Shown here: piece after piece, positions 5,308 through 58,296 of the stretch | How the letters are laid out: every line of letters begins with the position of its first letter | How positions within the stretch are numbered: position 1 is the stretch's first letter | The notes under the pieces: generated by a model | What the model was told of the DNA's origin: nothing | Databases searched by the model: none | The model's input: the letters and a program-made list of their open reading frames with translations, nothing else | Program-made: the position numbers and the translations under genes | Source: an uncultured Bacilli bacterium | Lineage (GTDB): Bacteria > Bacillota_I > Bacilli_A > RF39 > UBA660 | DNA: 64,000 bases | Direction of reading: 5' to 3' | NCBI GenBank assembly: GCA_934129885.1 | Contig: CAKOWU010000004.1 | Location: 857-64,856 of the forward strand

Positions 5308-5339
5308 CTTTGACATACTTCCATAAGTGTTGTATAGTT
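5308..5339 (+). promoter_or_regulatory. Sigma-A-type promoter for the Rpn-like gene (TTGACA-17-TATAGT), overlapping a GTTGTATAGTTTACT sequence related to the 41-bp motif
   Basis: The sequence 'tTTGACAtacttccataagtgttgTATAGTttact' was read directly. A perfect 10-bp palindrome, CTCGATCGAG, lies immediately downstream at 5346-5355. Confidence 0.45.
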
Positions 5340-11302: not shown

Positions 11303-11991
11303 TGTATATATATGGAAAAAACGCTTCTAAAGAAGCATTACAAAAAGGAAAAGTAAAACAAGCCTTTTTATATAAAAAATTCAAAGAAAAAGAAATACAA
11401 ACTTTATTAGAAAACAAAAACGTAAAAGTAACGTATTTAGATAAATACGAATTAGATAAAAAGCAAAAAGGTAACCACCAAGGAATAATATTAGAAGTAG
11501 AAGACTATAAATATTATTCATTAGACGACGCTACCGAAAACACCATAGTAATGCTTGATCATTTGGAAGATCCTCATAATTTTGGCGCAATAATTAGAAC
11601 TTGTGAAGCCGCAGGAATTAAAAACATCATTATCCCTAAAGATAGAAGTGTCAAAGTTACAAGCACAGTTATCAAAGTAAGCGTGGGTGCTATAGAAAAC
11701 GTTAAAATTATCATGGTAAATAATCTGGTGAACGCCCTAAAAAAATTAAAAGATAGTGGTTACTGGGTTATCGGTACCGATATGGAAGGGGAGGACTATC
11801 GCCTTTTAGACTACACTGGTAAAAAGGTAATTGTTATCGGTAGTGAGGGCAGTGGCCTAAGTAGACTCACCGAAGAAAACTGTGATTTTATTGCGAGTAT
11901 CCCTATGAACGGAACCGTAAATAGCCTCAACGCTTCAGTCGCCGCCGCTTTAGTAATTTATGAGTCTCAAAGAGGCAACTTAAATGCTTAA
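11302..11991 (+). CDS. rlmB: TrmH-family 23S rRNA (Gm2251) methyltransferase (YacO/RlmB-like)
   Basis: It has SpoU methylase motifs ('DPHNFGAIIRTCEAAG', 'IGSEGSGL'). Its position after mrnC matches the Bacillus arrangement. Confidence 0.8.
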   Translation: MYIYGKNASKEALQKGKVKQAFLYKKFKEKEIQTLLENKNVKVTYLDKYELDKKQKGNHQGIILEVEDYKYYSLDDATENTIVMLDHLEDPHNFGAIIRTCEAAGIKNIIIPKDRSVKVTSTVIKVSVGAIENVKIIMVNNLVNALKKLKDSGYWVIGTDMEGEDYRLLDYTGKKVIVIGSEGSGLSRLTEENCDFIASIPMNGTVNSLNASVAAALVIYESQRGNLNA

Positions 11992-12595
11992 AGACTTAAA
12001 CGATTATGAATTATTAGAACTTGCCACCGAAAATGAAGAGGCCAAAGAACTACTTTATAATAAATATAAACCATTAGTCATTAAAGAAGCTCAAAAGATG
12101 TATAATAAAAACCCAAATTGTGGACTAGATATCAACGATTTCATTCAAGAAGGAATGTATGGACTTTTGAAAGCCACAGAAAATTATAAAGAAAATAAAG
12201 GTAGTCTTTTCTATACGTATGCCAAAAAGTGTATCCTTTATTCATTGCAAAATAGCGTAACCAAAGTACATAGGCAAAAAAATATACCTTTAAATAACGC
12301 CTTGTCATTAGAAAAAGGTGAAGAGACTCAAAACTATGCGATTTATAGTGCTATAAAGGAAAACAGTGAAAGTCCAGAATGTGTCGTAACAGATTATTCA
12401 AACGTGAGGGAAATCTTATTTCGCTTAAATAATGAGCTTACCCCCTTAGAAGCACAAGTCTTCGAATTGAAACAAAGTGGCTTTGAAAATGACGAAATAT
12501 CCATAATTTTAGGTATAAGGGTTAAACAAATCTATAACGCCATGCATAGAATAAAACTAAAATTAAAAGTGGTGAGAAAGAAAATAAAAGGATAA
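11984..12595 (+). CDS. sigH: Sigma-70 family (SigH-like) RNA polymerase sigma factor
   Basis: Region 2 ('IQEGMYGLLKA') and a C-terminal region 4 HTH are present. Its location after rlmB matches the mrnC-yacO-(yacP)-sigH synteny. Confidence 0.7.
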   Translation: MLKDLNDYELLELATENEEAKELLYNKYKPLVIKEAQKMYNKNPNCGLDINDFIQEGMYGLLKATENYKENKGSLFYTYAKKCILYSLQNSVTKVHRQKNIPLNNALSLEKGEETQNYAIYSAIKENSESPECVVTDYSNVREILFRLNNELTPLEAQVFELKQSGFENDEISIILGIRVKQIYNAMHRIKLKLKVVRKKIKG

Positions 12596-19355: not shown

Positions 19356-21086
19356 ATGAAAGAAACAATAAAAAATTTAAACTTCGCCTGGAAATATGCG
19401 AAAGGACAAAAGAAAAACATTATCTTATACTTAATTCTTAATGTTCTTTTAATGATAATTAGTATAATTGTACCAATAATAAGTGCCCAAATAATTATTC
19501 ATCTGACAAATAGTGAACTCACTAGACTTTTTTATCTGGCACTAGTCCTATTAATCGTTGAAATAACAAGAAACATTATAAGAACATTTGCTACCAAAAA
19601 TGTTCAAATAATATATAGAGAAGCATTTACTAAAATTCAAACCAGTTTAGGTAGTGAAATTTTAAAAATAAATAATCAAACTTTAAATAAACATGGCAGT
19701 GGTCTATTTATTCAGCGTCTTAACGTAGATACAAGTAGAATTTCCGACGTGTTTGGCAATTTAATTTGGTACCTATTACAAATAATGACCAGTATAGGTA
19801 TATTCGGCGCAATATTCATTATAAATAAAGTTATGTGTCTTTGTATAATTATTATGGTTTTAGTTATTTACTTAATAGAGAAAAAAGAAATAAATACTTA
19901 TAACGAAAATGATAAAGAATATAGAAAAGAAGCCGAAAAGATATCAGGCTTTACAAGCGAACTAGTAAGAGGTGCTACCGATATAAAAATGCTCAGTGCT
20001 GAAAATAGTTTTGTAAGTGCGCTAAATCATAAAATGAGAACATTTAACCAAAAAAAATATAAAATGCAAATGACCGAAAGAAAATACGAATTTCTAACCA
20101 GTAGCGTACGTGATTTAAACCTATTTGTACTTTTAATACTTTTTGTATTTATGATTTCTAACGGTTATCTAACTGTGGCATCTGCTCTTGTTATTTATAA
20201 CTATTTCCCAGAAACAACTAACGTCGCTACAAATATCGGTTATATGCTTAAATGTTTAAAAGACTTTAACCTTTCATCATCTAGAATAATAGAAATATTT
20301 AATAGTAAAGAATTTGAAAAAGAAAAATTTGGTACTAAACATTTAAACCATGTTGACGGTAAATTTGAATTTAAAAAGGTAGACTTCTCATTTGGAGAAA
20401 GCAAGGTGCTTAATAACCTAAATTTCAAAGTAAACCCTAATGAAACAGTCGCTTTTGTCGGTAAATCTGGTGCCGGTAAAACAACAATATTTAATCTTTT
20501 GTGTAAAATGTATGATGCAGATAAAGGTGAAATACTAATAGACGGTATTAACATAAACGAACTTGATAGAAAATCAGTACGAGATAACATTACAATAATT
20601 TCTCAAAATCCATATATATTTAACCTTTCGATAAGAGAAAATCTAAAATTAGTTAAAGAAGATTTAACCGAAGAAGAAATGATCGAGGCTTGCCATTTAG
20701 CCTGTTTAGATGAATTTATAAATAATCAAAAAGATAAATACGATACCGTAGTAGGAGAGGGCGGAGTAACCTTATCTGGTGGTCAAAGACAAAGGCTTGC
20801 TATTGCTAGAGCCCTCGTACAAAAGACAGAAATAATTCTCTTTGACGAAGCTACCAGTAGCCTAGACAACGAAACTCAAAAAGAAATAAGTCAGGCTATA
20901 AATAACCTAAAAGGAGAATATACCATTTTAATAATCGCTCATAGACTGTCAACCATAATAAATAGTGATAGAATACTAGTTGTAAATAATGGCCAAATAG
21001 AGGCCAGTGGTACCCACGAAGAACTGCTAAAACAAAGTGTCTTTTATAGAAAACTTTATAATACCGAATTAGAACAAAAAAAGTAG
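19356..21086 (+). CDS. ABC transporter, fused permease/ATP-binding protein (ABCB-type exporter)
   Basis: It has six predicted TM segments and an NBD with 'GKSGAGKTT', 'LSGGQRQRLAIARAL' and 'ILFDEATSSLD'. Confidence 0.85.
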   Translation: MKETIKNLNFAWKYAKGQKKNIILYLILNVLLMIISIIVPIISAQIIIHLTNSELTRLFYLALVLLIVEITRNIIRTFATKNVQIIYREAFTKIQTSLGSEILKINNQTLNKHGSGLFIQRLNVDTSRISDVFGNLIWYLLQIMTSIGIFGAIFIINKVMCLCIIIMVLVIYLIEKKEINTYNENDKEYRKEAEKISGFTSELVRGATDIKMLSAENSFVSALNHKMRTFNQKKYKMQMTERKYEFLTSSVRDLNLFVLLILFVFMISNGYLTVASALVIYNYFPETTNVATNIGYMLKCLKDFNLSSSRIIEIFNSKEFEKEKFGTKHLNHVDGKFEFKKVDFSFGESKVLNNLNFKVNPNETVAFVGKSGAGKTTIFNLLCKMYDADKGEILIDGININELDRKSVRDNITIISQNPYIFNLSIRENLKLVKEDLTEEEMIEACHLACLDEFINNQKDKYDTVVGEGGVTLSGGQRQRLAIARALVQKTEIILFDEATSSLDNETQKEISQAINNLKGEYTILIIAHRLSTIINSDRILVVNNGQIEASGTHEELLKQSVFYRKLYNTELEQKK

Positions 21087-21130
21087 AAGATACCTCCAAA
21101 AGGGTTTTCTACTTTTTAAGTATATATTAT

Positions 21131-22198
21131 TTATCTATATTTTATTGTCTTCCTTAATGTAGGACCTTGCTCGCTTGAATTATTATTCGTGTTCTCATCA
21201 GATTCTTCGTCAATTTCTGCCTTATCAAACGTCTTGTCATAGTCATAACGTGCTTGCTTAATCTCTTGGATAGCATTTTCTAAACATTCAAGTTCCTGCT
21301 CACTAAATATAACCTGCGGATACACAGAAAAAGTATATTTTCTAGCACTATCTTCTGGTAGTTCTTCCATAATACTACCCATAACCTCTAAATGCTCTTT
21401 TTTATTTGCATCTCTATTTAAATTAGGGATCCCTATAATTGCGACATATTCATTATTTAATTTTCCTGTAATATATCCAAATTTAACTTCTTTGCCATGA
21501 GTTTTAACTGTAAGTGCATCATTAAGTTTTTCAATTTCATTTACTGTATATCCAAGAGGTAATAGTTCCTCATGACGAATATGTATCTTTCTTATATTAC
21601 TACTATTCGCATCATTGGCTTCATACGTAATAACTTCTGGTTCAACTTGAACATCACTCTTATCGTTATTGTTCGCAGCAATTTCTTCCGCATTCTTACT
21701 ATCCGTATCCTCATTTATATTAACTTTCGCATCGCTTTGAATATTTTCATAGATAAAACTTTCATCTCTATTGTAAGAAACATCATCGTGATTTAAAGCC
21801 GTCGTAATCGCTCCAACGTATATAAGTGCATCAATTTGGCTTTTTAGTGACACAAACTTGTGCATCTCCTCACGACTCATGGGAATAAGTGCCTTGTTAA
21901 ATTCTGGACTTTTCATCATCTTCCTTTTCATATTTGCTCTATGTACGCACGCACCTAGTAAATTTACAATAGGAATAAATGTTATAACAGCTCCTAAAAA
22001 CTTCTTAACATCATTTGCCTTGCTAACCTTAAATTCAGCTATCTTTTGCTTTTCAAAATACTTATCCAAAAGCCTTTTGTCATACTTATATCCTTTGCTT
22101 GCAATATTCGTTAAACAGTCATACTTAGCGTTCATCTTTAAGGCTGCAGAAAAAATAACACTCGCAATTTCCATCGCAAGCCCCAATACTATATTCAT
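21131..22198 (-). CDS. Hypothetical membrane protein with an acidic C-terminus
   Basis: Two N-terminal TM helices are predicted. A likely start at 'MNIVLG' has a GGGGGAGG RBS. It is co-directional with the downstream HTH gene. Confidence 0.45.
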   Translation of the reverse strand: MNIVLGLAMEIASVIFSAALKMNAKYDCLTNIASKGYKYDKRLLDKYFEKQKIAEFKVSKANDVKKFLGAVITFIPIVNLLGACVHRANMKRKMMKSPEFNKALIPMSREEMHKFVSLKSQIDALIYVGAITTALNHDDVSYNRDESFIYENIQSDAKVNINEDTDSKNAEEIAANNNDKSDVQVEPEVITYEANDANSSNIRKIHIRHEELLPLGYTVNEIEKLNDALTVKTHGKEVKFGYITGKLNNEYVAIIGIPNLNRDANKKEHLEVMGSIMEELPEDSARKYTFSVYPQVIFSEQELECLENAIQEIKQARYDYDKTFDKAEIDEESDENTNNNSSEQGPTLRKTIKYR

Positions 22199-22303
22199 AC
22201 AAAATCCTCCCCCAGCAAAATTGCTAGGAAATATAATAACACATTTTAAAATAAAAAGCAAATTTTGATAAAAAAATTAAATTTCTTCTTTATATAATAT
22301 TAA

Positions 22304-22561
22304 TTACTTCCTTATATATTCATAAATATCTTCTACATCTGCATTCAAATATCCGCACCACTTATCAATAAGCAAAATGTCTATTTGCTGAGCCATCCCA
22401 TTCGCATGTTTCTTTATAGTCTTAAAATCCGTATCCGTCTCCAGCATAAACTTATTAATACTAATACCTTTATCCTTAAGCACTTTACCAAGTTTAAATA
22501 AACAATACCCGTTAGGCAAATCAACCCTAACAACTTCCTTTGAAACACCTTTTATCTGCAT
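22304..22561 (-). CDS. XRE/Cro-like helix-turn-helix transcriptional regulator
   Basis: The 85-aa protein carries the HTH-like segment 'ISINKFMLETDTDFKTIKKHANGMAQQIDILLIDKWCGYLNADVEDI'. Confidence 0.5.
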   Translation of the reverse strand: MQIKGVSKEVVRVDLPNGYCLFKLGKVLKDKGISINKFMLETDTDFKTIKKHANGMAQQIDILLIDKWCGYLNADVEDIYEYIRK

Positions 22562-22603
22562 ATATTCATCACCAAAATAATTTTACAAATAATATAGGGT
22601 TAT

Positions 22604-22632
22604 TGACTATTGGGTAATGTTCTTATATTATG
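22604..22632 (+). promoter_or_regulatory. Sigma-A-type promoter (TTGACT-17-TATTAT) for the TasA-signal surface protein gene
   Basis: The sequence 'TTGACTattgggtaatgttcttaTATTAT' sits about 70 nt upstream of the ATG at 22702. Confidence 0.5.
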
Positions 22633-22701
22633 AAGCCATAAAAACATAAAACGTAAATAAAAATCACATTTTAAAGGTACAACTCAAAGGAGAAGAGTAA
22701 A

Positions 22702-23714
22702 ATGAAAAAAATAAAAAGACATAGAAGGCATAAAAAAAGCTATATCTTAGTGTTTTCAGTACTTTGTGTCTTTTTTTGCTTGCGTCCGCCTATGCAGCCT
22801 TCACCGCAAACGTAAATATAACTGTTAAAGGTAACATCTCCAACATAACCGGTTATGAAATGCTAAGAAATAAATGCCAAAGTGCAAATAGCGACAACAT
22901 ATATAAAGACCCCTACGAAAACGAAAGATGCATATATAAAGGAAACGCCCCAAATAATTACTTTATATTTAATAATGAACCTTGGCGTATCATTGCCCTA
23001 GAACAAGACGGTACCATTAAAATCATAAAAAATACATCAGCCACCACCACAGTCAACTTTGACGATCGAAAAACAAATAGGTATAATGCTTCCGGCTGGT
23101 GTACCGATAAAAATGGCGGTAACATTTATGGTAGTTCAAACAATATCAAAGATAGTATCGGTAATAAAATAGACCATTTTGTAGTAGGTGGTGAAAATAT
23201 TGCCTTGCCAAACGTAGACTCGCTAGCTAAAGATTACCTAAATTCTACTGGCATCTATAGCACATCCGGCTGGTATAACAGCATAGATACTAACGATAAA
23301 GCCCTAATTGTAGAACATGATTTTAAAGTAGGACCCATTAATACCAGTGTAGGCAACGCAGTAGCTATCAGCGATCTTTCTCTTGATGACATCATAGCCA
23401 TGGAAAAAACATACCTATGGAGTGGGAAAGTCGGTCTAATAAACCCAAGCGGCTACCAAAAATCACTAATAAATGGTACAACATACCTCAACATTGAAAC
23501 AGAAGGTGCCACAAATCACTATTGGTACTGGGGCATAAACCCAATTACAAATGATCGTGGTGCCACCGTATCAGCCAATTTCGGCATAAGACATGGGTAC
23601 GTTTATTACGGCACAGGTTCCACCGTCGGCCTAGTTCCCGTAGTCTTCTTAAACGGAAATATCTACCTCACTGGAAAAGGCTCCAACGACAGCCCCTATA
23701 TAATAAGAAAATAA
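22702..23714 (+). pseudogene. Secreted protein with a TasA-like (SipW-type) signal peptide and a C-terminal 'NPNNY..WRII..DGT..IKN' domain. The reading frame is broken at a T7 run (22771-22777).
   Basis: An ATG at 22702 with an 'aaaggagaag' RBS encodes 'MKKIKRHRRHKKSYILVFSVLCVFF', a classical positively charged n-region plus h-region. The frame then terminates. A +1 T in the T7 run fuses it to the 22764 ORF, giving '...LLASAYAAFTANVNITVKG'. This parallels 'GYAAFSSTLKISG' in the ORF at 45914 and the TasA 'WA|AFND' cleavage region. Confidence 0.5.
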
Positions 23715-24146
23715 ATGTGACTCCAAACCAGTGTTCTTAAATCTTTCCAAAAAATCATAGACACGATACTAATAATGTATGGCGTGATTAGGTCGTGTCT
23801 CACCATATATTTGCTTTAACCACACCAAAATCCAAAGCATCCTAAATTTAAAATAAATATCCAAAAGGAACTCCGCAAAATAAAAAGCCTAAATACGATT
23901 ATAACTTCGCAGTTAAGTCCTATCACTCGAAAAATATGCAAAAAATCAAACCAGAAAGAATAGTGTTCGCTATTAAATAAAATGATGTCTAAAAAAACTA
24001 TCGGTAACTGGTAGAACACAATAGGTGTGTAGGTATAAAGAACCCCATCACACTACCAGATAAAATATCATAATCTAATATCAGTTTTAATATAAATGTG
24101 CCAGTGTCTTGTTCCAAAACAAAAATTTAAATTTTTTCAAAAAAAA

Positions 24147-24187
24147 GAAGTAAAATGTCCCACTCGCGTTGTATATTACTAGTGAGG
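24147..24187 (+). promoter_or_regulatory. Copy 1 of a conserved 41-bp motif (GAAGTAA..TG.CCCACT..CGTTGTATATTACTAGTGAGG). Its 3' arm is the comEA Shine-Dalgarno sequence.
   Basis: It is 36/41 identical to 44671-44711. It forms a bulged hairpin, CCCACT/AGTGaGG, with a 16-nt loop. Confidence 0.5.
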
Positions 24188-24913
24188 AGGGATATTATCA
24201 AAAATATAATATTGAAATATAAAATACCAATCATCATATTGGTTGCCCTAGCGGGCTTAATAATAGCCAGTTTTTATACTACAAAAACAAACGAAGAAAG
24301 TGAGGTGATAATCGAAAATGAAACTAAAACCCCAAAACAAAAAGTGGCTACTGACAAAATCAAAGTAGATATCAAAGGTGAAGTAATAAATGCAGGAGTT
24401 TATGAACTAAAAACAGGTTCCAGAGTTATGGATCTAGTAGAAAAAGCCGGCGGTTTAACCGAAAACGCTAACACCGAACTTATAAACCTAAGTAAAAAAA
24501 TAAAAGACGAAAATGTCGTAATAATCTATTCCAAAAAACAAGTTGAAACGATTAAAGCAAATAGTAAGCAAAAAACCTCATTCAAAGAAATATGCGACTG
24601 TCCAGACGTAAACGATGCTTGCATAAAAGAAGAAGACGTTGTTGCAAATACTGCAAAAAAAGAAAATAAATCCTCATCATCAAAAATCACCAAAGAAAGT
24701 GCTAGCGCCGAAACTACCACTGGTAAAATCAACATAAACACAGCTAGTAGCGAAGAACTAGAAACGCTAAACGGAATAGGGCAGACTAGAGCATCCGCCA
24801 TCATCGAATATCGTGAAAAAAACGGTAACTTCAGCACCATAGAAGATATCAAAAACGTCCAAGGCATTGGAACCGCCCTATATGACAAAATCAAAGATAA
24901 CATTACTGTTTAG
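24155..24913 (+). CDS. comEA: Competence protein ComEA (membrane-anchored DNA receptor with SLBB and HhH domains). The exact start is uncertain.
   Basis: A TM segment is followed by 'KVDIKGEVINAGVYEL' (SLBB). The C-terminus 'ININTASSEELETLNGIGQTRASAIIEYREKNGNFSTIEDIKNVQGIG' is the helix-hairpin-helix. A GGAGG SD sits at 24186-24190. Confidence 0.8.
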   Translation: MSHSRCILLVRRDIIKNIILKYKIPIIILVALAGLIIASFYTTKTNEESEVIIENETKTPKQKVATDKIKVDIKGEVINAGVYELKTGSRVMDLVEKAGGLTENANTELINLSKKIKDENVVIIYSKKQVETIKANSKQKTSFKEICDCPDVNDACIKEEDVVANTAKKENKSSSSKITKESASAETTTGKININTASSEELETLNGIGQTRASAIIEYREKNGNFSTIEDIKNVQGIGTALYDKIKDNITV

Positions 24914-26960
24914 CATACTTCTTACTATCTATGCACTCATCTGCCTTATCATAAATATAAACAAAACGCCGCATTCCATCTATAAAGAAGGTACCTATAC
25001 CATAAAAGGTATTGTAAAAAAATGTATCACCAAAGAAGATAAAACCACAATCACCTTATCTTCTAAAGAAAACATACTTATAAATGATTATAACGCATCA
25101 AAATGTCATCTAGGAAGCATGGTGAAGGCTACTGGAAAATTGCAAAAGCCAAATAATAATACCGTATTTAATACATTTAACTACCGTAGATACCTTTATA
25201 GCCAGCACATAAACTACATTATGACCGTGGATAAAATAACCTTCTTACCATCCAAACCAAGCATCCTCTATAGTGCCCAGAACGCCATAAGAGGCCATAT
25301 CAAAAATTACCAAACAAAAAATTACCTCGAAACTTTTATCCTAGGTGACAAAAGCGATATCGATGCCGAAGTCATGAATAGTTATCAAAATAACGGCATA
25401 AGCCATCTGTTATCCATATCGGGAATGCATATAAGCCTACTTTCATTAATAATTCTTTTTGCCTTAAATAAAATATCCAAAAGGAAAATAATAAACTACC
25501 TTCTAGTTATAGTGTGCCTAGTATCATATGCCACCTTAACAGGTCTCTCACCACCAGTCGCCAGAGCAACCCTTTTATTTATAGCCCTAACCATAAACAA
25601 AACATTTGACTTAAAAATCAAAACCATATACCTGCTCATAATCATCTGTGACATCACCATAATATATAATCCTTATATAATATATAACATTGGCTTCCAG
25701 TTTTCCTACATAGTGTCTTTCTATCTTATATTGTTTCAAAAACTAATAGAAGCAAAAAAAGACTACATAACCAAAACATTTTTAATATCATTTATCGCCT
25801 TTCTAGCAGGCATTCCTATAATGATAATCAACTTTCACCAAATAAATCTGCTTTCACCCTTAATTAATGTAATCTTTGTACCATTAGTCTCCGTCATTAT
25901 CTTCCCATTATCACTCATCACCCTCATCATCCAACCACTAGATTTGCCCCTCAAAATCATCATCGAATGCACTGAACAAATATCATTAAGCATCGCTGCT
26001 GTCGATAATTTTAACATCATACTAAAACACATAAACCTTATTATCGTCGCTGCATATTATCTTGTCATTACCGGCACTTTATATTGCCTTGTAAAAAGAC
26101 AAATACGCGGTCTTGTAATCCTTTCGTTAATGCTTTTTGCCCACACCAATATAAATTATTTAAACCCATATCCATTCATAACCATGATTGATGTAGGGCA
26201 AGGGGATAGTCTTTTGCTTTCATTGCCGCATAACAAAGGAAACATCTTAATCGATACTGGTGGTACCGCAAACTTCCGAAATAGTTTTAAAAATCAAAAT
26301 AAAAAATTCACTGGTACCATCGCTACAAACACAATTAACTATCTAAAAAGTGAAGGCATAAAAGAAATAAACTATCTCATAATAACCCATGGTGACTTCG
26401 ACCACATAGGAGAAGCCGAGAACCTCATAAATAATTATAAGATTAAAAACATAATACTAAACTCACACCAAAACAATAGCCTAGAAGACGCAGTAGTAAA
26501 TCTTGCCCATAAAAAACATATCCCATGTAAAAATATAAATGAAGGTTATTTAAAAATAAATAAATACAAACTTAAATTTTTAAAAAGTAATTCGCAAACT
26601 GAAAATGAAGATAGTCTTATTATTTATACAAAAATGAATAACCAGAATATATTATTAATGGGAGATGCAGGAGAAGAAAGAGAAAAATATATTTTAAAAG
26701 AATATAATTTACCCAAAATGGATATATTAAAAGTAGGACACCATGGGTCTAAACATTCCACATCTCCAAGGTTTGTAAACCAGATAGAGCCTAAGATATC
26801 ATTAATATCCGCAGGCCGTAATAACTTATATGGTCACCCCCATAAAGAACTACTCGCAAGGTTAGAAGATAGTAAACTTCTAATTACCCAAATAGATGGT
26901 TCTGTAAAAATTGTATTAAAAAAAAGAACCATCTATTACACATGCCCGCTAATGCGTTAG
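24882..26960 (+). CDS. comEC: DNA internalization competence protein ComEC/Rec2
   Basis: It is a polytopic membrane protein with the competence domain 'ISHLLSISGMHISLL' and a C-terminal metallo-beta-lactamase motif, 'ITHGDFDHIGEAENL'. It overlaps the comEA 3' end. Confidence 0.85.
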   Translation: MTKSKITLLFSILLTIYALICLIININKTPHSIYKEGTYTIKGIVKKCITKEDKTTITLSSKENILINDYNASKCHLGSMVKATGKLQKPNNNTVFNTFNYRRYLYSQHINYIMTVDKITFLPSKPSILYSAQNAIRGHIKNYQTKNYLETFILGDKSDIDAEVMNSYQNNGISHLLSISGMHISLLSLIILFALNKISKRKIINYLLVIVCLVSYATLTGLSPPVARATLLFIALTINKTFDLKIKTIYLLIIICDITIIYNPYIIYNIGFQFSYIVSFYLILFQKLIEAKKDYITKTFLISFIAFLAGIPIMIINFHQINLLSPLINVIFVPLVSVIIFPLSLITLIIQPLDLPLKIIIECTEQISLSIAAVDNFNIILKHINLIIVAAYYLVITGTLYCLVKRQIRGLVILSLMLFAHTNINYLNPYPFITMIDVGQGDSLLLSLPHNKGNILIDTGGTANFRNSFKNQNKKFTGTIATNTINYLKSEGIKEINYLIITHGDFDHIGEAENLINNYKIKNIILNSHQNNSLEDAVVNLAHKKHIPCKNINEGYLKINKYKLKFLKSNSQTENEDSLIIYTKMNNQNILLMGDAGEEREKYILKEYNLPKMDILKVGHHGSKHSTSPRFVNQIEPKISLISAGRNNLYGHPHKELLARLEDSKLLITQIDGSVKIVLKKRTIYYTCPLMR

Positions 26961-28914: not shown

Positions 28915-29037
28915 GTTTACAAATAAAAAAAAATATGATATTATTAAAGGGCTATATTTTTGAATATAGATATAAGTGGGAGCGCCGATGCATTATGACC
29001 ACTCGCGAAAAAGTAAAATATATAGGAGGTGTTTTTC

Positions 29038-43686: not shown

Positions 43687-44559
43687 ATGGTAATAGTAAT
43701 TGCCGGACCAACCGGAGTGGGTAAAACAGACCTCAGCCTCTGCCTTGCCCATAAACTAAATGGTGAAATAATAAACGCCGATAGCACGCAAATATATAAA
43801 GGGTTAAATATTGCTACCAATAAAGTAATAGATAAAGAAAATATTCCGCATCATCTGCTAGATAAAATAGATATTACGAAAGATTATACAGTTTTCGATT
43901 ATCAAAAAGACGCTAGAAAAGCCATAGAAGACATAATATCTAGAGGCAAAATACCTATCATCGTAGGAGGCACTGGCTTATACATAAAAGCTGCTTTATA
44001 TGATTATAATTTTCCAAGAAAAGATAAAGAACAGTATGAAGGCTATAGCAATGATGAATTATATAAAATGCTCAAAGAAAAAGATCAAAATAGCACAGTA
44101 CATCTAAACAATAGAGTTAGAATAATAAATGCCCTAAACTATATTAACTCTACCAATAAACCGTATAGCGAAAAATCTAAAAACGACGTCTTATTATATG
44201 ATGCCCTGTTTATTGGCCTTACCACCGATAGAGATATTTTGTACTATAAAATAAATAAAAGAGTAGATAAAATGTTAGAAGATGGTCTCATAAAAGAAGC
44301 TAAAGACCTTTATAATACTGGCATTAGAACCAAAGCCGTAATGACACCTATCGGATATAAAGAATTGTTTGAGTATTTTGACGGCAACATATCAAAAGAA
44401 ACAGCCGTTGAAAACATTAAACAAAGAAGTAGAAGGTACGCTAAAAGGCAATATACTTGGTTTAACAATCAAATGCAGTTAAAATGGTTTAACGTCAATT
44501 ATGATAATTTTAAAAAGACAGAAGAAGACGTACTAAAATATATTAAAGAAAACATCTAA
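43687..44559 (+). CDS. miaA: tRNA dimethylallyltransferase MiaA
   Basis: It has the P-loop 'IAGPTGVGKT' and the motif 'INADSTQIYKGLNI'. Confidence 0.85.
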   Translation: MVIVIAGPTGVGKTDLSLCLAHKLNGEIINADSTQIYKGLNIATNKVIDKENIPHHLLDKIDITKDYTVFDYQKDARKAIEDIISRGKIPIIVGGTGLYIKAALYDYNFPRKDKEQYEGYSNDELYKMLKEKDQNSTVHLNNRVRIINALNYINSTNKPYSEKSKNDVLLYDALFIGLTTDRDILYYKINKRVDKMLEDGLIKEAKDLYNTGIRTKAVMTPIGYKELFEYFDGNISKETAVENIKQRSRRYAKRQYTWFNNQMQLKWFNVNYDNFKKTEEDVLKYIKENI

Positions 44560-44670
44560 TAATCGTTAGATGTTTTTTTGTAACTACACAAATATATGGA
44601 CTTTATGTGAGTATGTATTAATATCAAAAACTAAATTTTTATAGGAAATTTAAAAATTTTGTAATTTGAA

Positions 44671-44711
44671 GAAGTAATTTGCCCCACTTACGTTGTATAT
44701 TACTAGTGAGG
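44671..44711 (+). promoter_or_regulatory. Copy 2 of the conserved 41-bp hairpin motif, located about 70 nt upstream of an Rpn-like gene
   Basis: The sequence 'gaagtaatttgccccacttacgttgtatattactagtgagg' was compared directly with 24147-24187. A compensatory extra C:G is present in the stem. Confidence 0.5.
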
Positions 44712-44780
44712 GGAGTAAAAGGAGTATTTCTTAAATAAAAAGGGACTGTATTCATTTTTTGAAGGGAGGAAAAAAAGATT

Positions 44781-45704
44781 ATGGACAATGTGAAAAAAAT
44801 GGATACAAAAAATATTAAAATAAAGGAGGTGTTGCCAGATGGAACAGTATTCTATAAACCACTAGCGGACTCTGTATTTAAGGCTATGTTTGTAGGGAGA
44901 AAGAACTTATTAAAGTTCTATTTAGATATGTCTATGGAAGAAGAAGTGAATGTGGTAAATTCTAATATTTTAGAGTTACCTTATAAAAGTGTATGGTCAA
45001 AAAAGCAAAGAGTAGATGTTATAGCTACTTTGGAAGGCGGTAGACATGCGATTTTAGAAATGAACTCATCTTTTTATGATGGTCAGCACGAGAAAGGTCT
45101 TCTATATCTTTGTACTCTTTTTTCTAACACAATAAAGGCTGGAGACGATTATAAAAATGTAGATGAAGTAATACTCATAAACTTCACTTATGGTTTGCCA
45201 GATTACTATCCTGAAAAAGCCGTATACGTTCTTACCGACGAAGAAACCGGTCTAAAGTATTCCACAAAATTCAAGATAATCGAATTTAATGGGTCTAAAA
45301 TACTTAAGGCATGGTATAATAATGGTAACAGCAAGTACTTACATGTTGCGATGCTTGCGTTTAATAAAGAAGAGTTAGAACGGTTAGGCACGAATGGAGA
45401 TAAGATTATGGAAGAATTTGTAAAGAGTGTAAAAGAGATTAATAATAATTCTGACTTCATAGAGTTTATGTCGAAAGAAGAAGACGAGGAAAAGACCAGG
45501 AATACTTATTTTGCCAATGGTAAAGAAGAAGGTCGAGAAGAAGGCTATATTAGTGGTGAAAAGCATGGTAAAGAGATTGGAGCGTTAGAAAAGGCCATAG
45601 AAACCGCAAAAAATATGTTAAATAAAAACTTTGATATAAAAACAATAGCCGAAGTCACAAATCTACCTTTAAGTGACATTAAAGCACTACAAACCGAAAA
45701 ATAA
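44781..45704 (+). CDS. Rpn/YhgA-like PD-(D/E)XK nuclease / putative transposase family protein
   Basis: The N-terminal 'DSVFKAMF' and 'ILEMN' core are present. The C-terminal 'EGREEGYISGEKHGKEIGALEKAIETAKNMLNKNFDIKTIAEVTNLPLSDI' tail is typical of the family and is similar to the tail of the ORF at 5395. Confidence 0.65.
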   Translation: MDNVKKMDTKNIKIKEVLPDGTVFYKPLADSVFKAMFVGRKNLLKFYLDMSMEEEVNVVNSNILELPYKSVWSKKQRVDVIATLEGGRHAILEMNSSFYDGQHEKGLLYLCTLFSNTIKAGDDYKNVDEVILINFTYGLPDYYPEKAVYVLTDEETGLKYSTKFKIIEFNGSKILKAWYNNGNSKYLHVAMLAFNKEELERLGTNGDKIMEEFVKSVKEINNNSDFIEFMSKEEDEEKTRNTYFANGKEEGREEGYISGEKHGKEIGALEKAIETAKNMLNKNFDIKTIAEVTNLPLSDIKALQTEK

Positions 45705-45759
45705 TATTTTAATAAGACATATCTGAATGTATACTAGGAAATTTATAAGCAAGGATTAT

Positions 45760-45888
45760 CGTATAACTGCATATTATGCGTTACATAAATAGTGAAAATC
45801 TTACTTTTGATATAGATAAAAGTATTTAGCATTTCTCTAAAATACTGATTTTATAGCAAAAGATTATCGCATAATATGCAGTTATACG
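45760..45888. repeat. Perfect 21-bp inverted repeat pair (cgtataactgcatattatgcg / cgcataatatgcagttatacg) separated by 87 bp. Each copy is flanked by GATTAT...TTA. It lies directly upstream of the TasA-like gene.
   Basis: It was read directly, at 45760-45780 and 45868-45888. Confidence 0.6.
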
Positions 45889-45913
45889 TTAATATAGGGA
45901 GAAGATAGATAGT

Positions 45914-47161
45914 ATGAGGCATAGAAGAAATTATAGAAATAAAAACATATTAATAGGAATTTTACTTGTCATTGTTGTTCTGATGGCAATAGGTTATGCT
46001 GCTTTTTCAAGCACCTTAAAAATATCTGGCACATCTAATATATCTACATCTTGGAATATAGCCATAATGGATATTACTACTAGTAATAAAATCGGTAGTG
46101 CATCAGTAAGTGGTACTCCTAGTTATGATAGATTAACCGCAACGTTTAATACCGATTTAGTATTGCCAGGCGATAGTATAACATACAATATCAAAGTAGA
46201 AAACAAAGGTAATTTGGATGCTAAACTTGATAAAATAACTCTAGACAAAACAGATAATCCAGCGATACTATTTGATACAACAGGATTAAAAGAAGGAGAT
46301 ACTTTAAAACAAGGTGCTTATTCAATTCTGTCAGTAAAAGTAACCTACAACAGTAGTGTTACATCACAGCCTACTAAATTAGATGCATCATTTACAGTCA
46401 CTTTAGATTTTGTACAAAATACTAGTTCTACATCAAAAGAAGATTTAACGCCAACATTTACATCTAGCAGCACTGACAGTTCATACATTACTATAAATTT
46501 TCCTGAAGGCTGTGGAACAAAGTTGCAGTGTAGATTTTCTAAAGAAAGTAGTGACTATATTAATGTGTATAATTCTAAAGCTACGGTGTATAACAACGGA
46601 AAAATAACCGCAGAAGTTGTCAATGGAGATGATACAATAACTAATCAATGTTGGAATGGTCTAGCATCGACATCTGCTCCCATTCGTGCGTATGGTTATA
46701 AGATCATCGCATATGGTAACGAAACTATCGATTGGAAAGAATATGGCGGTTTTTCATATGAAGTATTAAATAAATTTCCAATTGACTTGAACGAAGAATT
46801 ACAAAATATGTTTTATAGTGTAGATAATTACGGGAGTACATTAGCAGATTATTTTTATTCGGAAGATGATTTTGAGAAATTTATCAGTATAAGAGATGAA
46901 TTTTCATCTTACGACGTATTCCCACTAAGTTTAGCGGCAAATGATACGGCTGAAAGGACAGAAGAGGGGAAATATATTATTAGATTAACGGTTCCGCAGA
47001 TATCCCGTAAATATAATAATTATATAATACTTGAAGACACTCCAAGTAATGGAATAAGTGTCTCAAATGTTAATGAGACAGATATTGATTTAGAAAAGAA
47101 AGCGATAACTTTTGAAAGCGAAAGCATGAGTATCCTGTACATTTTCTTTAAAAAAAACTAA
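45914..47161 (+). CDS. TasA/camelysin-family secreted protein with a SipW-type signal peptide and a C-terminal extension
   Basis: The N-terminus 'MRHRRNYRNKNILIGILLVIVVLMAIGYAAFSSTLKISGTSNIS' parallels the TasA signal and 'A|AFND' cleavage site. 'LVLPGDSITYNIKVENKGNLDAKL' resembles the TasA 'LKPGDKLTKDFQFENNGSLAIK' block. Confidence 0.55.
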   Translation: MRHRRNYRNKNILIGILLVIVVLMAIGYAAFSSTLKISGTSNISTSWNIAIMDITTSNKIGSASVSGTPSYDRLTATFNTDLVLPGDSITYNIKVENKGNLDAKLDKITLDKTDNPAILFDTTGLKEGDTLKQGAYSILSVKVTYNSSVTSQPTKLDASFTVTLDFVQNTSSTSKEDLTPTFTSSSTDSSYITINFPEGCGTKLQCRFSKESSDYINVYNSKATVYNNGKITAEVVNGDDTITNQCWNGLASTSAPIRAYGYKIIAYGNETIDWKEYGGFSYEVLNKFPIDLNEELQNMFYSVDNYGSTLADYFYSEDDFEKFISIRDEFSSYDVFPLSLAANDTAERTEEGKYIIRLTVPQISRKYNNYIILEDTPSNGISVSNVNETDIDLEKKAITFESESMSILYIFFKKN

Positions 47162-51305: not shown

Positions 51306-51896
51306 ATGAGAAATTCAAAAGGTTTTACTTTGATTGAATTGTTAGCCGTTATCATCATCCTTGCTATAGTTGCATTAGTAACTACACCTACTATTACTAG
51401 TACAATTAATAACTCACGTTTAGAGGGTGCTAAAGATAAAGCGTGGGGAACTATTGATGGTATTAAACTTGCATATGCGCAAATAACTACCAACACTGAT
51501 ACAATGGATATTACCGTTGACCTACCAGCAACAGTAACTTTCGGTAGTGTAGCAGAAGGTGCTAAAGCTAGTGGTGTAATTACAAGTGTTAAATCTGGAA
51601 AAGGAACTTCTGCTTCTACTTCTACTTCTACTGATGGCAAAACCACTGCTTATTATGCGATTAATCATAACTTCAACGTAAATGGTGAAATACCACAAAG
51701 TGGGTCAATTCAATTCACAGAAACCGGTAAAATAATTGCTAACCAATTAAAATACACTGGTAATGGTGAATATTATTGTTCTACTGCTAATGGTGGTTCA
51801 GTTATGATATGTGACGCTAAGGCAGATAAAGTTGCGGCTAGTACCGTTGTTAAGGGAAGTACAATTGACACCATACAACAAGAGACAACTGAATAA
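51306..51896 (+). CDS. Type IV pilin / competence pseudopilin-like protein
   Basis: The canonical prepilin signal 'MRNSKG|FTLIELLAVIIILAIVALV' is present. A promoter TTGATT-17-TATATT lies upstream, and a terminator at 51917-51948 lies downstream. Confidence 0.75.
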   Translation: MRNSKGFTLIELLAVIIILAIVALVTTPTITSTINNSRLEGAKDKAWGTIDGIKLAYAQITTNTDTMDITVDLPATVTFGSVAEGAKASGVITSVKSGKGTSASTSTSTDGKTTAYYAINHNFNVNGEIPQSGSIQFTETGKIIANQLKYTGNGEYYCSTANGGSVMICDAKADKVAASTVVKGSTIDTIQQETTE

Positions 51897-52516: not shown

Positions 52517-54146
52517 TTGCCGATAGTAATTGATAATTTTTCTAATATAATTAATGACGAATTTTACTATGTACACAAAACTAAAGCAATAGAAGAGTTG
52601 CTTGATAGTAGAGGGGAAGTAAAATCATTTCCTCGCCCTAGGAAATTTGGTAAAACATTGTTTATGTCAACACTAGAAAACTTTTTTGATATAGATAAAA
52701 AAGATGTTAACAAGGATTTATTTAAAGGCTTATACATAAATAATACTAAATATAAAGATGTACAAAATACATATTCTGTGATAAGCATGTCTTTAAAAAG
52801 TCTTAAACAAAGAACATTTAAAGATGTAATAGAACAGTATAAAATATTAATCGCAAGTATTTATGATAAAGATATGTTCTTGAGTGTTTGGAAAAAGAAA
52901 AAAAATATACAATAAAATTTTATCTAAAACGAGTGATATGGGTGAACTTAAAGATTCAATATTATTTTTAAGTAACTGTCTATATAAGTATCATAATAAA
53001 CAAGTAATTATTCTAATAGATGAATATGATGTACCAATACAAGAAGGCTATTTGGACGGCTTTTATGACGAGATAATAGATTTTATGAAATCATTTTTAT
53101 CAAATACTTTGAAATCAAATGATTATCTTAAAATGGGTATTTTAATTGGTGTTTTTAAAGTATCTAAAGAAAGTATATTTAGTGATTTAAATAATTTAGA
53201 AGTATATAGTATTATAGATGATAGTTATGAGGAATATTTGGGCTTTACAGAAAGTGAAACTAAAGAATTACTTGAGTATTATGATTTGTCTTTAACCAAA
53301 AAGGTAAAAGAAATGTATAACGGCTATGATTTTGGTGGAACTCCAATATATAACCCTTGGAGTATACTTAATTATGCCAAAAGAATAATAATGGATGCAT
53401 ACTTGGTAAACACAAGTGGCAATGACTTAATAAGAAGTTTGCTTTTAAAAACGGATGGTGCAAATAAATCGCAATTAGAAAAACTTGCTTTAGGTAATAG
53501 TTTAACTTTTACATATGATGATAAAATAACATATCAAGACTTTAATGATTACAATAATATAAATACAATACTTAATATTATGTTTTCATCAAGCTATCTT
53601 ACGGTAGATAAAAGCATGGATACAGATGACGAGTTAATATACGCTAAAATACCAAATTTAGAGGTGAAAAAATTAATTACATGTATAATAGCTAACCTAA
53701 CAGACACCAATAGTTATAATAAAATACTTAATGAGGTAATATTATTTAACAGGGCTTTAAAAGAATATGATAAAAAAGAACTTGAAACCTTACTTAATAA
53801 AATGTTTGCATCTTTATCATATATGGATAGTCAAGAATACTTCTATCATGCGTATACTTTAGGTATCTTTAAATCATTACTAGATAATAGTGACTATATT
53901 ATAAAATCAAATAGAGAAGCCGGCAGTGGTAGATTCGATGTAATGATAAGAAAAACAGATAATAGCGTAGGGTATGTAATAGAGTTTAAACTAGCAAGCG
54001 CTGAAGAAGAAATGGAAACAAGCGCGAAGGACGCTATTAACCAGATGAAAGATAAAGAATATTATAAAGAACTAGAACTTGAGGGAGTAAACGATATAAA
54101 GGAAATTGCTATGGTATTTCATGGTAAAAAAGTAATTGTAAGATAA
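52517..54146 (+). pseudogene. AAA-ATPase-like (PF09820-type) N-domain + PD-(D/E)XK (DUF1703-type) C-domain protein, split by a frameshift in an A8 run (52898-52905)
   Basis: 'YYVHKTKAIEELLDSRGEVKSFPRPRKFGKTLFMSTLENFFD' is the family N-terminal signature. The C-terminus 'REAGSGRFDVMIRKTDNSVGYVIEFK' is the PD-(D/E)XK core. Deleting one A joins '...SVWKKKK' to 'IYNKILSKTS...'. Confidence 0.6.
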
Positions 54147-57714: not shown

Positions 57715-57777
57715 AATCTTGCTTTTTTCTTGTAATAAAGAAAAAAATAGTATACAATTATTATTAGGGTGAACAAT

Positions 57778-58296
57778 ATGAAAAGAACAGGATTTACACT
57801 AATCGAATTAATGGGTGCAGTCATAATATTATCTTTAATTGCTTTACTTGCATTCCCGTCAGTCGTAAACATGATAAAATCTGCGGATGAAGAAATAGAC
57901 AGTGCACTCAAAGAAAAACTCATCTCCGCAGCGGAGCAGTACGTCAATGATAATGCAGACGACTTTCCAATGACTAAATCAAATAATTATTCAAAATGCG
58001 AACAACTACCAAATAATGCTTATAACTTATCTGTTGATGTCTATGACGATCTTTTAAATGGCGAGTATATAGATGAGGATCTATTAGACGAATATAATAA
58101 AAACAAGGATGAAAGTGAGCAAATCATTAAAGGTGGAAATAAAAATTTAAGAACAATATACGTAGGCAATATATATTATGAAAAAACATATAAGAAAGAA
58201 TATAATACTGGAAACGATAAAACCACTACAACTACAAATAAAAAGGCAATACAAAAATATTGCTATAAATATGGAGGAGACCTCAAAAATGAATAA
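57778..58296 (+). CDS. Type IV prepilin-like protein
   Basis: The canonical motif 'MKRTG|FTLIELMGAVIILSLIALLAF' is present. The upstream promoter is TTGTAA-15-TATACA. Confidence 0.7.
   Translation: MKRTGFTLIELMGAVIILSLIALLAFPSVVNMIKSADEEIDSALKEKLISAAEQYVNDNADDFPMTKSNNYSKCEQLPNNAYNLSVDVYDDLLNGEYIDEDLLDEYNKNKDESEQIIKGGNKNLRTIYVGNIYYEKTYKKEYNTGNDKTTTTTNKKAIQKYCYKYGGDLKNE

Follow-up and report, generated by a model that had tools for sequence, protein, structure and literature searches.

Why should a gene for DNA uptake and a gene for a putative recombination nuclease, 20 kb apart in an uncultured gut bacterium, be preceded by nearly the same sequence? The two genes lie in a 64,000-nt stretch of DNA from an uncultured Bacilli bacterium (GTDB lineage Bacteria; Bacillota_I; Bacilli_A; RF39; UBA660; GenBank assembly GCA_934129885.1, contig CAKOWU010000004.1, positions 857 to 64,856 of the forward strand), referred to below as the window. 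Its G+C content is 32%, and it belongs to a human-gut metagenome lineage; a relative has a 1.37 Mb contig of circular size. An earlier note, made from the letters alone, had described a 41-bp hairpin motif upstream of comEA and of an Rpn-family nuclease gene (here called Rpn2), with a looser third copy before a second Rpn gene (Rpn1). It had proposed a shared regulatory site, an RNA switch or the end of a mobile unit. Here we weigh these proposals against the sequences of related loci. In the reading that we prefer, to which we give a probability of roughly 55%, the motif would be the core of a reused promoter module of Rpn nuclease genes that also stands in front of comEA-comEC, and the hairpin would be accidental.

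Two upstream regions share an extended sequence

The motif copies lie on the forward strand at 24147-24187 (GAAGTAAAATGTCCCACTCGCGTTGTATATTACTAGTGAGG) and 44671-44711 (GAAGTAATTTGCCCCACTTACGTTGTATATTACTAGTGAGG). Read directly from the sequence, they agree at 36 of 41 positions and differ at five, exactly as first described, and they share the 21-mer CGTTGTATATTACTAGTGAGG, which starts on the plus strand at 24167 and 44691. No further match to this 21-mer was found in the window with up to three mismatches, and it was absent from 100 shuffles (chance expectation 0). The likeness reaches further left than had been noted: 24123-24187 and 44646-44711 can be aligned with 54 of 67 positions identical (81%), and the local alignment score of this extended pair is 66, against a null maximum of 31.

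The first copy precedes comEA (open reading frame (ORF) 24155-24913, plus strand), the product of which has SLBB and HHH_3 domains in Pfam and scores above the cut-off of the NCBIfam comEA helix-hairpin-helix domain model. It is followed by comEC (24867-26960, plus strand), with the Competence and Lactamase_B domains of ComEC homologs. The second copy sits between miaA and Rpn2 (44781-45704, plus strand), which encodes a PD-(D/E)XK Rpn-family nuclease or putative transposase (PF12784) that falls just under the cut-off of TIGR01784 (E 8.9e-14; 51.9 bits, cut-off 52.1). This copy ends 69 nt before the Rpn2 ATG at 44781, close to the 70 nt originally estimated. The intervening leader (44712-44780, plus strand) carries its own ribosome-binding site, GGGAGG at 44764-44769, and is homologous to the leaders of Rpn2 paralogs (...AAAAAGGGACTGTATTCATTTTTTGAAGGGAGG..ATG).

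The module precedes a family of Rpn genes

Homologs of Rpn2 (76-86% identical proteins) were found in cassettes that pair an LRR_5 gene with an Rpn gene and are often tandemly duplicated (loci L016-L022; for example L016, 3143-7888). The module stands in front of at least four such further paralog types and precedes every Rpn2-like paralog retrieved. The cassettes probably belong to the same genome as the window, because the samples ERZ28614049 and ERZ27287243 yielded both cassette contigs and contigs of the window species; they could represent a variable surface-protein system linked to Rpn nucleases. Homology between the upstream regions of the paralogs and of Rpn2 extends over ~220 nt, from a terminator-like hairpin to the ATG, and the module is internal to it; the paralog regions contain AAGAAATTTG-CGAATAAACACA-GTATATTACTAGTGAGGGGG.

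Eight distinct homologous copies were aligned, and a profile was built from the same eight. When the collected loci were searched with this profile, the module was detected only 5' of Rpn2-like genes (L016-L022, with two matches per tandem cassette locus, and L024-L027), of comEA (the window and L028, a strain 98.7% identical to it) and of an exporter gene in another species (L032). Every copy is on the coding strand and immediately 5' of a gene. The alignment contains two conserved blocks, AAG(A/T)AA(A/T)(A/T)TG and GTATATTAyTArTGAGG. Block 2 is invariant at 15 of its 17 positions, the remaining two varying between C and T and between G and A; block 1 is semi-conserved; and the 12-13 nt between them differ freely among copies.

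In the 65-nt comEA copy (24123-24187, plus strand; profile match E 1.6e-15), block 1 is AAGAAGTAAAATG (24145-24157), the spacer is TCCCACTCGCGTT (24158-24170), which occupies the least conserved columns and holds the left arm of the hairpin, and block 2 is GTATATTACTAGTGAGG (24171-24187). The 66-nt Rpn2 copy (44646-44711, plus strand) has block 1 at 44669-44681 (GAAGAAGTAA), the spacer CCCCACTTACGTT at 44682-44694 and block 2 at 44695-44711. The spacers elsewhere read ACCTATTTACACT in the L024-type strains, GCGAATAAACACA in the Rpn paralogs and TAAACAAAAATT before the L032 exporter. The paralog spacers contain TGCGAATA, which resembles the streptococcal ComX box; this interpretation was rejected, as the window, L024 and L032 copies lack the sequence.

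A degenerate pattern search of species-representative genomes gave five matches, one of which was a true relative. This is L032, a 24% G+C metagenome-assembled genome (MAG) labelled 'Clostridia bacterium' and another species, where the module lies directly 5' of a peptide cleavage/export ABC transporter gene that is followed by an ORF with a double-glycine motif. The L032 module agrees with the upstream region of the L022 Rpn gene at 65 of 80 positions (81%) and with the comEA copy at 26 of 26 over 24169-24194. The intergenic region before the exporter is ~105 nt long, and the module is essentially the sole candidate promoter in it. At L032 380-500, the exporter and a divergent gene on the opposite strand (CotE-like by eye only) are both preceded by a near-identical AGTGAGGAGGGATAAAT ribosome-binding region. 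The other four matches were rejected as chance: three lie in Terriglobia, Chloroflexota and Ignavibacteria MAGs, and one is a hairpin directly after hflX in a Clostridium MAG. Three viral matches of the same pattern turned out to be one phage sequence, probably also by chance. The 19-mer GTTGTATATTACTAGTGAG had no match in 185,579 species-representative genomes and only unrelated chance matches in JGI metagenomes and IMG/VR (at 43-45% GC, or within phage genes), and no module match was found in the phage and plasmid collections.

The supposed third copy, upstream of Rpn1 (at 5329), did not hold up. It has only the 8-mer GTTGTATA in common with the module, an 8-mer that occurs five times in the window, and the eight-copy profile did not detect the site. 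The Rpn1 promoter is of the ordinary sigma-70 type (TTGACA-17-TATAGT, 5310-5338, plus strand; 11/12 match) and lies outside the module family; GTTGTATA overlaps its -10, so that the same bases serve as a -10 there. Identity between the Rpn1 and Rpn2 proteins is only 32% over 167 aa. Immediately before the Rpn1 promoter, the segment 5181-5317 matches the left end of L019 (3-139) in inverted orientation at 79% identity, and 2727-2830, which follows a DUF285 gene, is 83% identical to L019 546-646. By sequence, these appear to be further repeated intergenic segments around Rpn loci.

The two blocks resemble a promoter

A promoter would be expected to show such a pattern, with two conserved blocks around a variable spacer that recur in front of three classes of unrelated genes. 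Block 2 contains TATATT, which matches TATAAT at 5 of 6 positions, is invariant in all eight copies and would be the -10 (24172-24177 at comEA, 44696-44701 at Rpn2); the AAGTAA of block 1 in the comEA copy is at the -35 position if the spacer between them is taken as 18 nt. We infer that the module has promoter activity and that the comEA transcript would start at about 24183-24186. The proposed module would thus span ~65-80 nt and consist of an A-rich upstream stretch, block 1 at -35, a spacer of 12-13 nt, and a block 2 holding the -10 and the first transcript bases. It would belong to the Rpn (PD-(D/E)XK) nuclease cassette family, with one copy in this species placed before comEA-comEC and fused to comEA's own ribosome-binding site, and with a copy in the other species driving the peptide-export ABC transporter. 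On this proposal comEA-comEC and the Rpn genes would share one kind of promoter. Of the earlier claims, that of an upstream element common to comEA and an Rpn gene is borne out, with a promoter as its best reading, and the association with Rpn genes is real; the hairpin is not a conserved part of it.

The leaders of the paralogs are consistent with such a start site. A hairpin begins in the G run right after the 17-mer (GGGGGAAUA..UGUUCCCCU; -12.5 kcal/mol, z -2.7; L016 4330-4355, with equivalents in L019 and L022), which is where a 5'-terminal stem-loop would stand if transcription began near GTGAGG. The L019 equivalent and that at the window's Rpn2 (44708-44735) are much weaker, and the structure may be a stabilising stem-loop that is decaying in some copies.

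Several points weigh against a promoter of this kind. The -35 position (AAGTAA or AAGAAA) matches TTGACA at only 2-3 of 6 positions, and a sigma-70 scan does not call the module site. A start at about 24183-24186 would leave almost nothing of the comEA message ahead of its ribosome-binding site, an unusual arrangement. Moreover, block 2 is conserved well past the -10 (ACTAGTGAGG), across species and genes; conservation of ACTAGTGAGG beyond a bare -10 hints at an extra constraint, for instance a regulator site or the 5' end of the RNA. Finally, the probable placement of the paralogs in the same genome is based on co-occurrence in samples and not on a closed assembly.

Strain comparisons point to exchange between upstream regions

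The comEA locus was compared with those of its relatives. ComEC homologs are 99% identical within the species and 62% or lower beyond it. In the 62% relative (L004), the region upstream of comEA retains GAAGTAAAA and TGAGGAGGGATATTATC, and the 27 nt between them are replaced by GAAATAAAAAGAAATTATTATAATAT. Because of this replacement, the middle of the motif (left arm, loop and most of the right arm) is species-specific at comEA. The ribosome-binding site AGGAGG (24185-24190, plus strand) is ancestral to comEA, with TGAGGAGGGATATTATCAAA conserved in L004; GAGGAGGG is unique in the window. More distant relatives (L005 and L008) have unrelated sequence upstream of comEA, with a perfect AAAGGAAAT box about 55 nt upstream. 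The family profile found no match in the comEA upstream regions of L004, L005 or L008. A likeness of the L005 comEA leader (AGGGGGGTAAAAAGGAGG) to the Rpn2 leader was not confirmed by profile search.

The start codon of comEA is likely to differ from the annotated one. The ATG at 24155, which the gene caller chose and which lies inside the motif, was rejected, as no ribosome-binding site precedes it and L004 has nothing that corresponds to it; there, gene callers choose TTG. No ATG, GTG or TTG stands at a normal distance from the comEA AGGAGG (24185-24214). The true start is probably a non-canonical ATT at 24194 or ATC at 24197, because GATATTATCAAA is conserved in the window and L004.

The comEA copy combines comEA-type flanks, as in L004, with a block 2 that is of the Rpn type because it is present in all paralogs. 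Conversely, block 1 of the Rpn2 copy is closer to comEA block 1 than to that of the paralogs, and block 1 of L024 is identical to that of comEA over 13 nt. Short-patch recombination between the two upstream regions would be the simplest account of this pattern, and copies could have been homogenised or moved in general by such gene conversion.

The Rpn2 locus is itself mosaic within the species. Exact protein matches of the window were found on ENA contigs from Hadza and other gut samples; strains with exactly the window's Rpn2 protein have an identical motif and are therefore uninformative. In a second group of strains (L024-L027, with flanks 99.6% identical), the Rpn2 copy departs from that of the window at 5 of 13 spacer bases, and two segments are missing: 44714-44822 (~110 nt, comprising the Rpn2 leader and the first 14 codons) and 45037-46665 (~1630 nt). 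In the window, Rpn2 is followed by a gene for an unannotated 415-aa protein with a signal-peptide-like N-terminus; in L024-L027, the N-terminal part of Rpn2 is joined in frame to the C-terminus of this 415-aa protein in a 248-aa chimera. The 215 nt retained between the missing segments (44823-45036) are only 91.6% identical, which suggests that this patch was imported.

The sequence upstream of comEA is also variable on a larger scale. L028 lacks ~490 nt (22833-23322) inside the gene for a 316-aa protein upstream of comEA, and L004 lacks the entire 19381-24120 segment, with a remnant of the ABC transporter gene start abutting comEA. One further contig begins within comEA and contains no DNA upstream of it. 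Judged from these comparisons, the comEA upstream junction appears to be structurally unstable. In addition, the 9-mer CCACTCGCG of the comEA-copy spacer recurs in the nusG-rplK spacer (28999-29020) beside AAGTAAAAT, which the motif also contains, in reversed order relative to the motif; CCACTCGCG is conserved there in L004. This recurrence may be chance (rough p 0.05-0.1) or a source of the spacer sequence.

The hairpin is not conserved

In the original description, the 3' arm of the hairpin was said to hide the comEA ribosome-binding site. Both window copies do fold stably on the plus strand (-16.3 kcal/mol, z -3.9, and -13.7 kcal/mol, z -2.5), but the minimum-energy register differs from the one proposed: it pairs CUCGC with GUGAG and AUGUCCC with GGGAUAU, the CCCACT/AGTGaGG register being also possible. 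The minus strands show no notable folding (z about -1), the folds being strand-specific because they depend on G-U pairs. The overlap of the 3' arm of the comEA copy with the Shine-Dalgarno sequence AGGAGG (24185-24190) is as described, and the change at the outermost pair (21-51), from T-A to C-G between the window copies (U-A to C-G in the RNA), is real; nothing else supports covariation. Across the eight copies, the helix of the earlier note is paired in 68% of cells, compared with 66% in shuffles (183 of 500 as good), and the minimum-energy structure in 68.5%, compared with 67.9% (228 of 500 as good). The left arm sits in the most variable stretch of the module and is unpaired in 4-5 of the 8 copies. 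For the other copies, folding energies lie between -0.9 and -6.1 kcal/mol and z is near 0; the paralog copy (-3.6 kcal/mol) and the L032 copy (-0.9 kcal/mol) have no fold to speak of. Within the species, the stem is broken at both loci, by a G to A change at comEA in L028 (ACTAaTGAGG) and by a non-complementary spacer at Rpn2 in L024-L027 (-6.1 kcal/mol, z -0.26).

An RNA hairpin that sequesters the comEA ribosome-binding site as a translational switch, with a related structure in the Rpn2 leader, could appeal to the stability of the two folds, to the one exchanged pair and to the position of AGGAGG in the 3' arm. It also has a precedent in the inhibitory inverted repeat of the Staphylococcus aureus sigH 5' untranslated region (PMC3486894), an example of leader hairpins that sequester a ribosome-binding site. 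In the module, however, pairing is no better than in shuffled controls: half of its copies are unable to form the hairpin, strains disrupt it at comEA and at Rpn2, and its middle is replaced in L004. The TATATT lies in the loop, and a transcript that starts after it would lack the left arm, which is probably upstream of the transcript start; furthermore, the actual ribosome-binding site of Rpn2 is 55 nt further downstream. By these comparative data an RNA switch is largely refuted, and among the explanations considered here we hold it to be the least probable. Rfam gave no match to the module at gathering score or at E up to 1, which excludes a known RNA family. An intrinsic terminator was called neither in 23700-24300 nor in 44500-44850, and is excluded because there is no T run, the hairpin being followed by AGGGATATTATC or GGAGTAAAAGG. 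The CCC(C)ACT/AGTGAGG(G) hairpin would instead arise because the spacers of these two copies happen to complement a G-rich transcript start.

Alternative explanations for the shared sequence

The blocks might instead be read by an alternative sigma factor or a dedicated regulator, so that comEA-comEC, Rpn genes and the ComA-like exporter of the related species are co-induced, and the copies are alike through selection and not solely through copying. A candidate is encoded in the window: a SigH-like sigma factor of 203 aa (11984-12595, plus strand) with Sigma70_r2 and r4_2 domains, the best NCBIfam matches of which are SigH models, all below cut-off. Its gene lies directly after mrnC (10925) and rlmB (11302), the position that sigH has in Bacillus, and the factor is a divergent SigH-like one, encoded in a lineage with small genomes and apparently without sporulation. 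In Listeria and Staphylococcus, SigH-type factors classically act on the comEA and comG operons (PMC4754846, PMC3486894). Against the sigmaH consensus (-35 RMAGGRWWW and -10 RRMGAAW, 11-12 nt apart; PMC4754846), block 1 matches (A/G)(A/C)AGG(A/G)WWW at 8 of 9 positions, and block 2 has GTAT 14-15 nt after block 1, where the consensus has GAAW, so that the spacing fits. The AAAGGAAAT box of the distant relatives would be in keeping with this, with GTAT 14 nt later in L005, as would the conservation of block 2 past the -10; and DNA uptake, a recombination nuclease, and a peptide exporter with a double-glycine ORF would suit a competence-like programme. Yet the -10 core is GTAT and not GAAT in all copies (4-5 of 7 positions match the -10 consensus), and the -35 has AGT or AGA where the core of the consensus is AGG. 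A strict sigmaH/ComX pattern found no match at the motif, and a Bacillus subtilis-type sigmaH pattern had one intragenic chance match in the window. L004 lacks GTAT at the expected place, and the profile is blind to the comEA upstream regions of all three relatives. Among the candidate com genes of the 64-kb window, the module is found only at comEA-comEC: two genes for prepilin-type (N_methyl) proteins, with weak ComGC- and ComGE-like matches (51306-51896 and 57769-58296), do not have it. In addition, the 26-nt identity between species includes positions that no sigma factor contacts, which makes copying likelier than convergence. We consider a sigma factor- or regulator-specific promoter unlikely on balance, and rate as somewhat less likely still the more specific form in which the module is a competence-type recognition element, read by the SigH-like factor or by a regulator on ACTAGTGAGG, that co-induces comEA-comEC, the multi-copy Rpn genes and the related-species exporter.

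Two further explanations dispense with a shared regulatory function. The similarity could be a neutral scar of gene conversion between upstream regions, perhaps favoured by a recombinogenic Rpn locus, with regulation unchanged. This agrees with the absence of the central part of the comEA copy from the nearest relative, with the mosaicism of Rpn2 and with L032 being the only match in the species-representative genomes. Block 2, however, is intact in two strains that differ by 1.3% elsewhere, and the patch covers exactly the place where the comEA promoter must lie, directly 5' of the ribosome-binding site, so that it would hardly be without effect; we find this explanation doubtful. Even less probable is an origin in a mobile element, of which the motif would be a remnant or one end (of a MITE-like element, or of an Rpn 'transposon'), the copy at comEA being a solo one. 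The module does accompany genes that carry a putative-transposase annotation, tandem duplication of the cassettes is seen, and one truncated Rpn homolog has an IS110-family transposase gene immediately upstream. But the module is internal to the ~220-nt homologous region, not terminal; it has a fixed orientation immediately 5' of a gene, with no copies at random sites in the loci searched; it has no inverted terminal partner and no flanking duplication, the sole inverted repeat being the non-conserved hairpin; the viral-contig matches were probably chance; and the flanks at comEA are ancestral comEA sequence.

Other features of the window

A good sigma-70 promoter, its -10 extended by TG (TTGATT..TGATATATT), precedes the gene at 51306. 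Two overlapping ORFs (52517-52915 and 52884-54146) each encode part of an AAA-ATPase_like / PDDEXK_9 protein and together (52517-54146) are probably a frameshifted gene. The ribosomal protein L10 leader (RF00557, 30248-30370, 65.4 bits) was the only Rfam family found in the window.

Relation to known systems

A reused promoter module has close counterparts in the putative mobile promoters of Matus-Garcia, Nijveen and van Passel (2012; PMC3575422), defined as sequences that are at least 80% identical over 50 nt or more and stand in front of genes that are not homologous. The comEA and Rpn2 copies within one genome (81% over 67 nt) and the L032 exporter and L022 Rpn copies between species (81% over 80 nt) lie above these values, and the downstream proteins are unrelated. 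Like those sequences, the module is not part of a recognised mobile element and has no Rfam match. Unlike them, it includes the -10 and, by our reading, the transcript start; it is anchored in the multi-copy Rpn family; and its strain mosaics point to gene conversion as the route of spreading. The published screen used the region from -150 to -50, and the position of the module differs from this; promoter activity is untested for most of the published cases (PMC3575422).

The likeness to the SigmaH/ComX competence promoters of Listeria and Staphylococcus (PMC4754846, PMC3486894) lies in the position before comEA, the two-block structure, the sigmaH-like spacing, the resemblance of block 1 to RMAGGRWWW and the presence of a SigH-like gene. 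The module departs from them in its GTAT for GAAT and AGT or AGA for AGG, in its absence from the other candidate competence genes of the window, and in standing mostly before Rpn genes, which are not known to belong to com regulons. Correia, ERIC and REPIN elements (listed in PMC3575422) are likewise short intergenic repeats able to supply promoters. In contrast to these, the module has no terminal inverted repeats, target duplications or orientation-independent scatter, and is known from only a handful of copies, all gene-proximal.

In summary, the best-supported conclusion is that this locus is a new instance, in an uncultured gut bacterium, of promoter reuse, which is of an already known kind. 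It also illustrates that a hairpin can look convincing locally, and even show one 'compensatory' pair, and yet have arisen by accident from a promoter spacer that varies. Were the module instead part of a shared competence-type regulon that includes Rpn nucleases, the result would be more interesting than promoter reuse, and a competence-type programme would tie these nucleases to natural transformation or to the processing of incoming DNA. If the promoter module is as we propose, it provides a clean natural case of promoter reuse, in which ~65 nt are common to a recombination-nuclease family and a DNA-uptake operon, and strain-level mosaics catch the exchange in progress. Expression of comEA-comEC would then have been rewired recently in this organism, because the sequence of its closest relative differs at this place.

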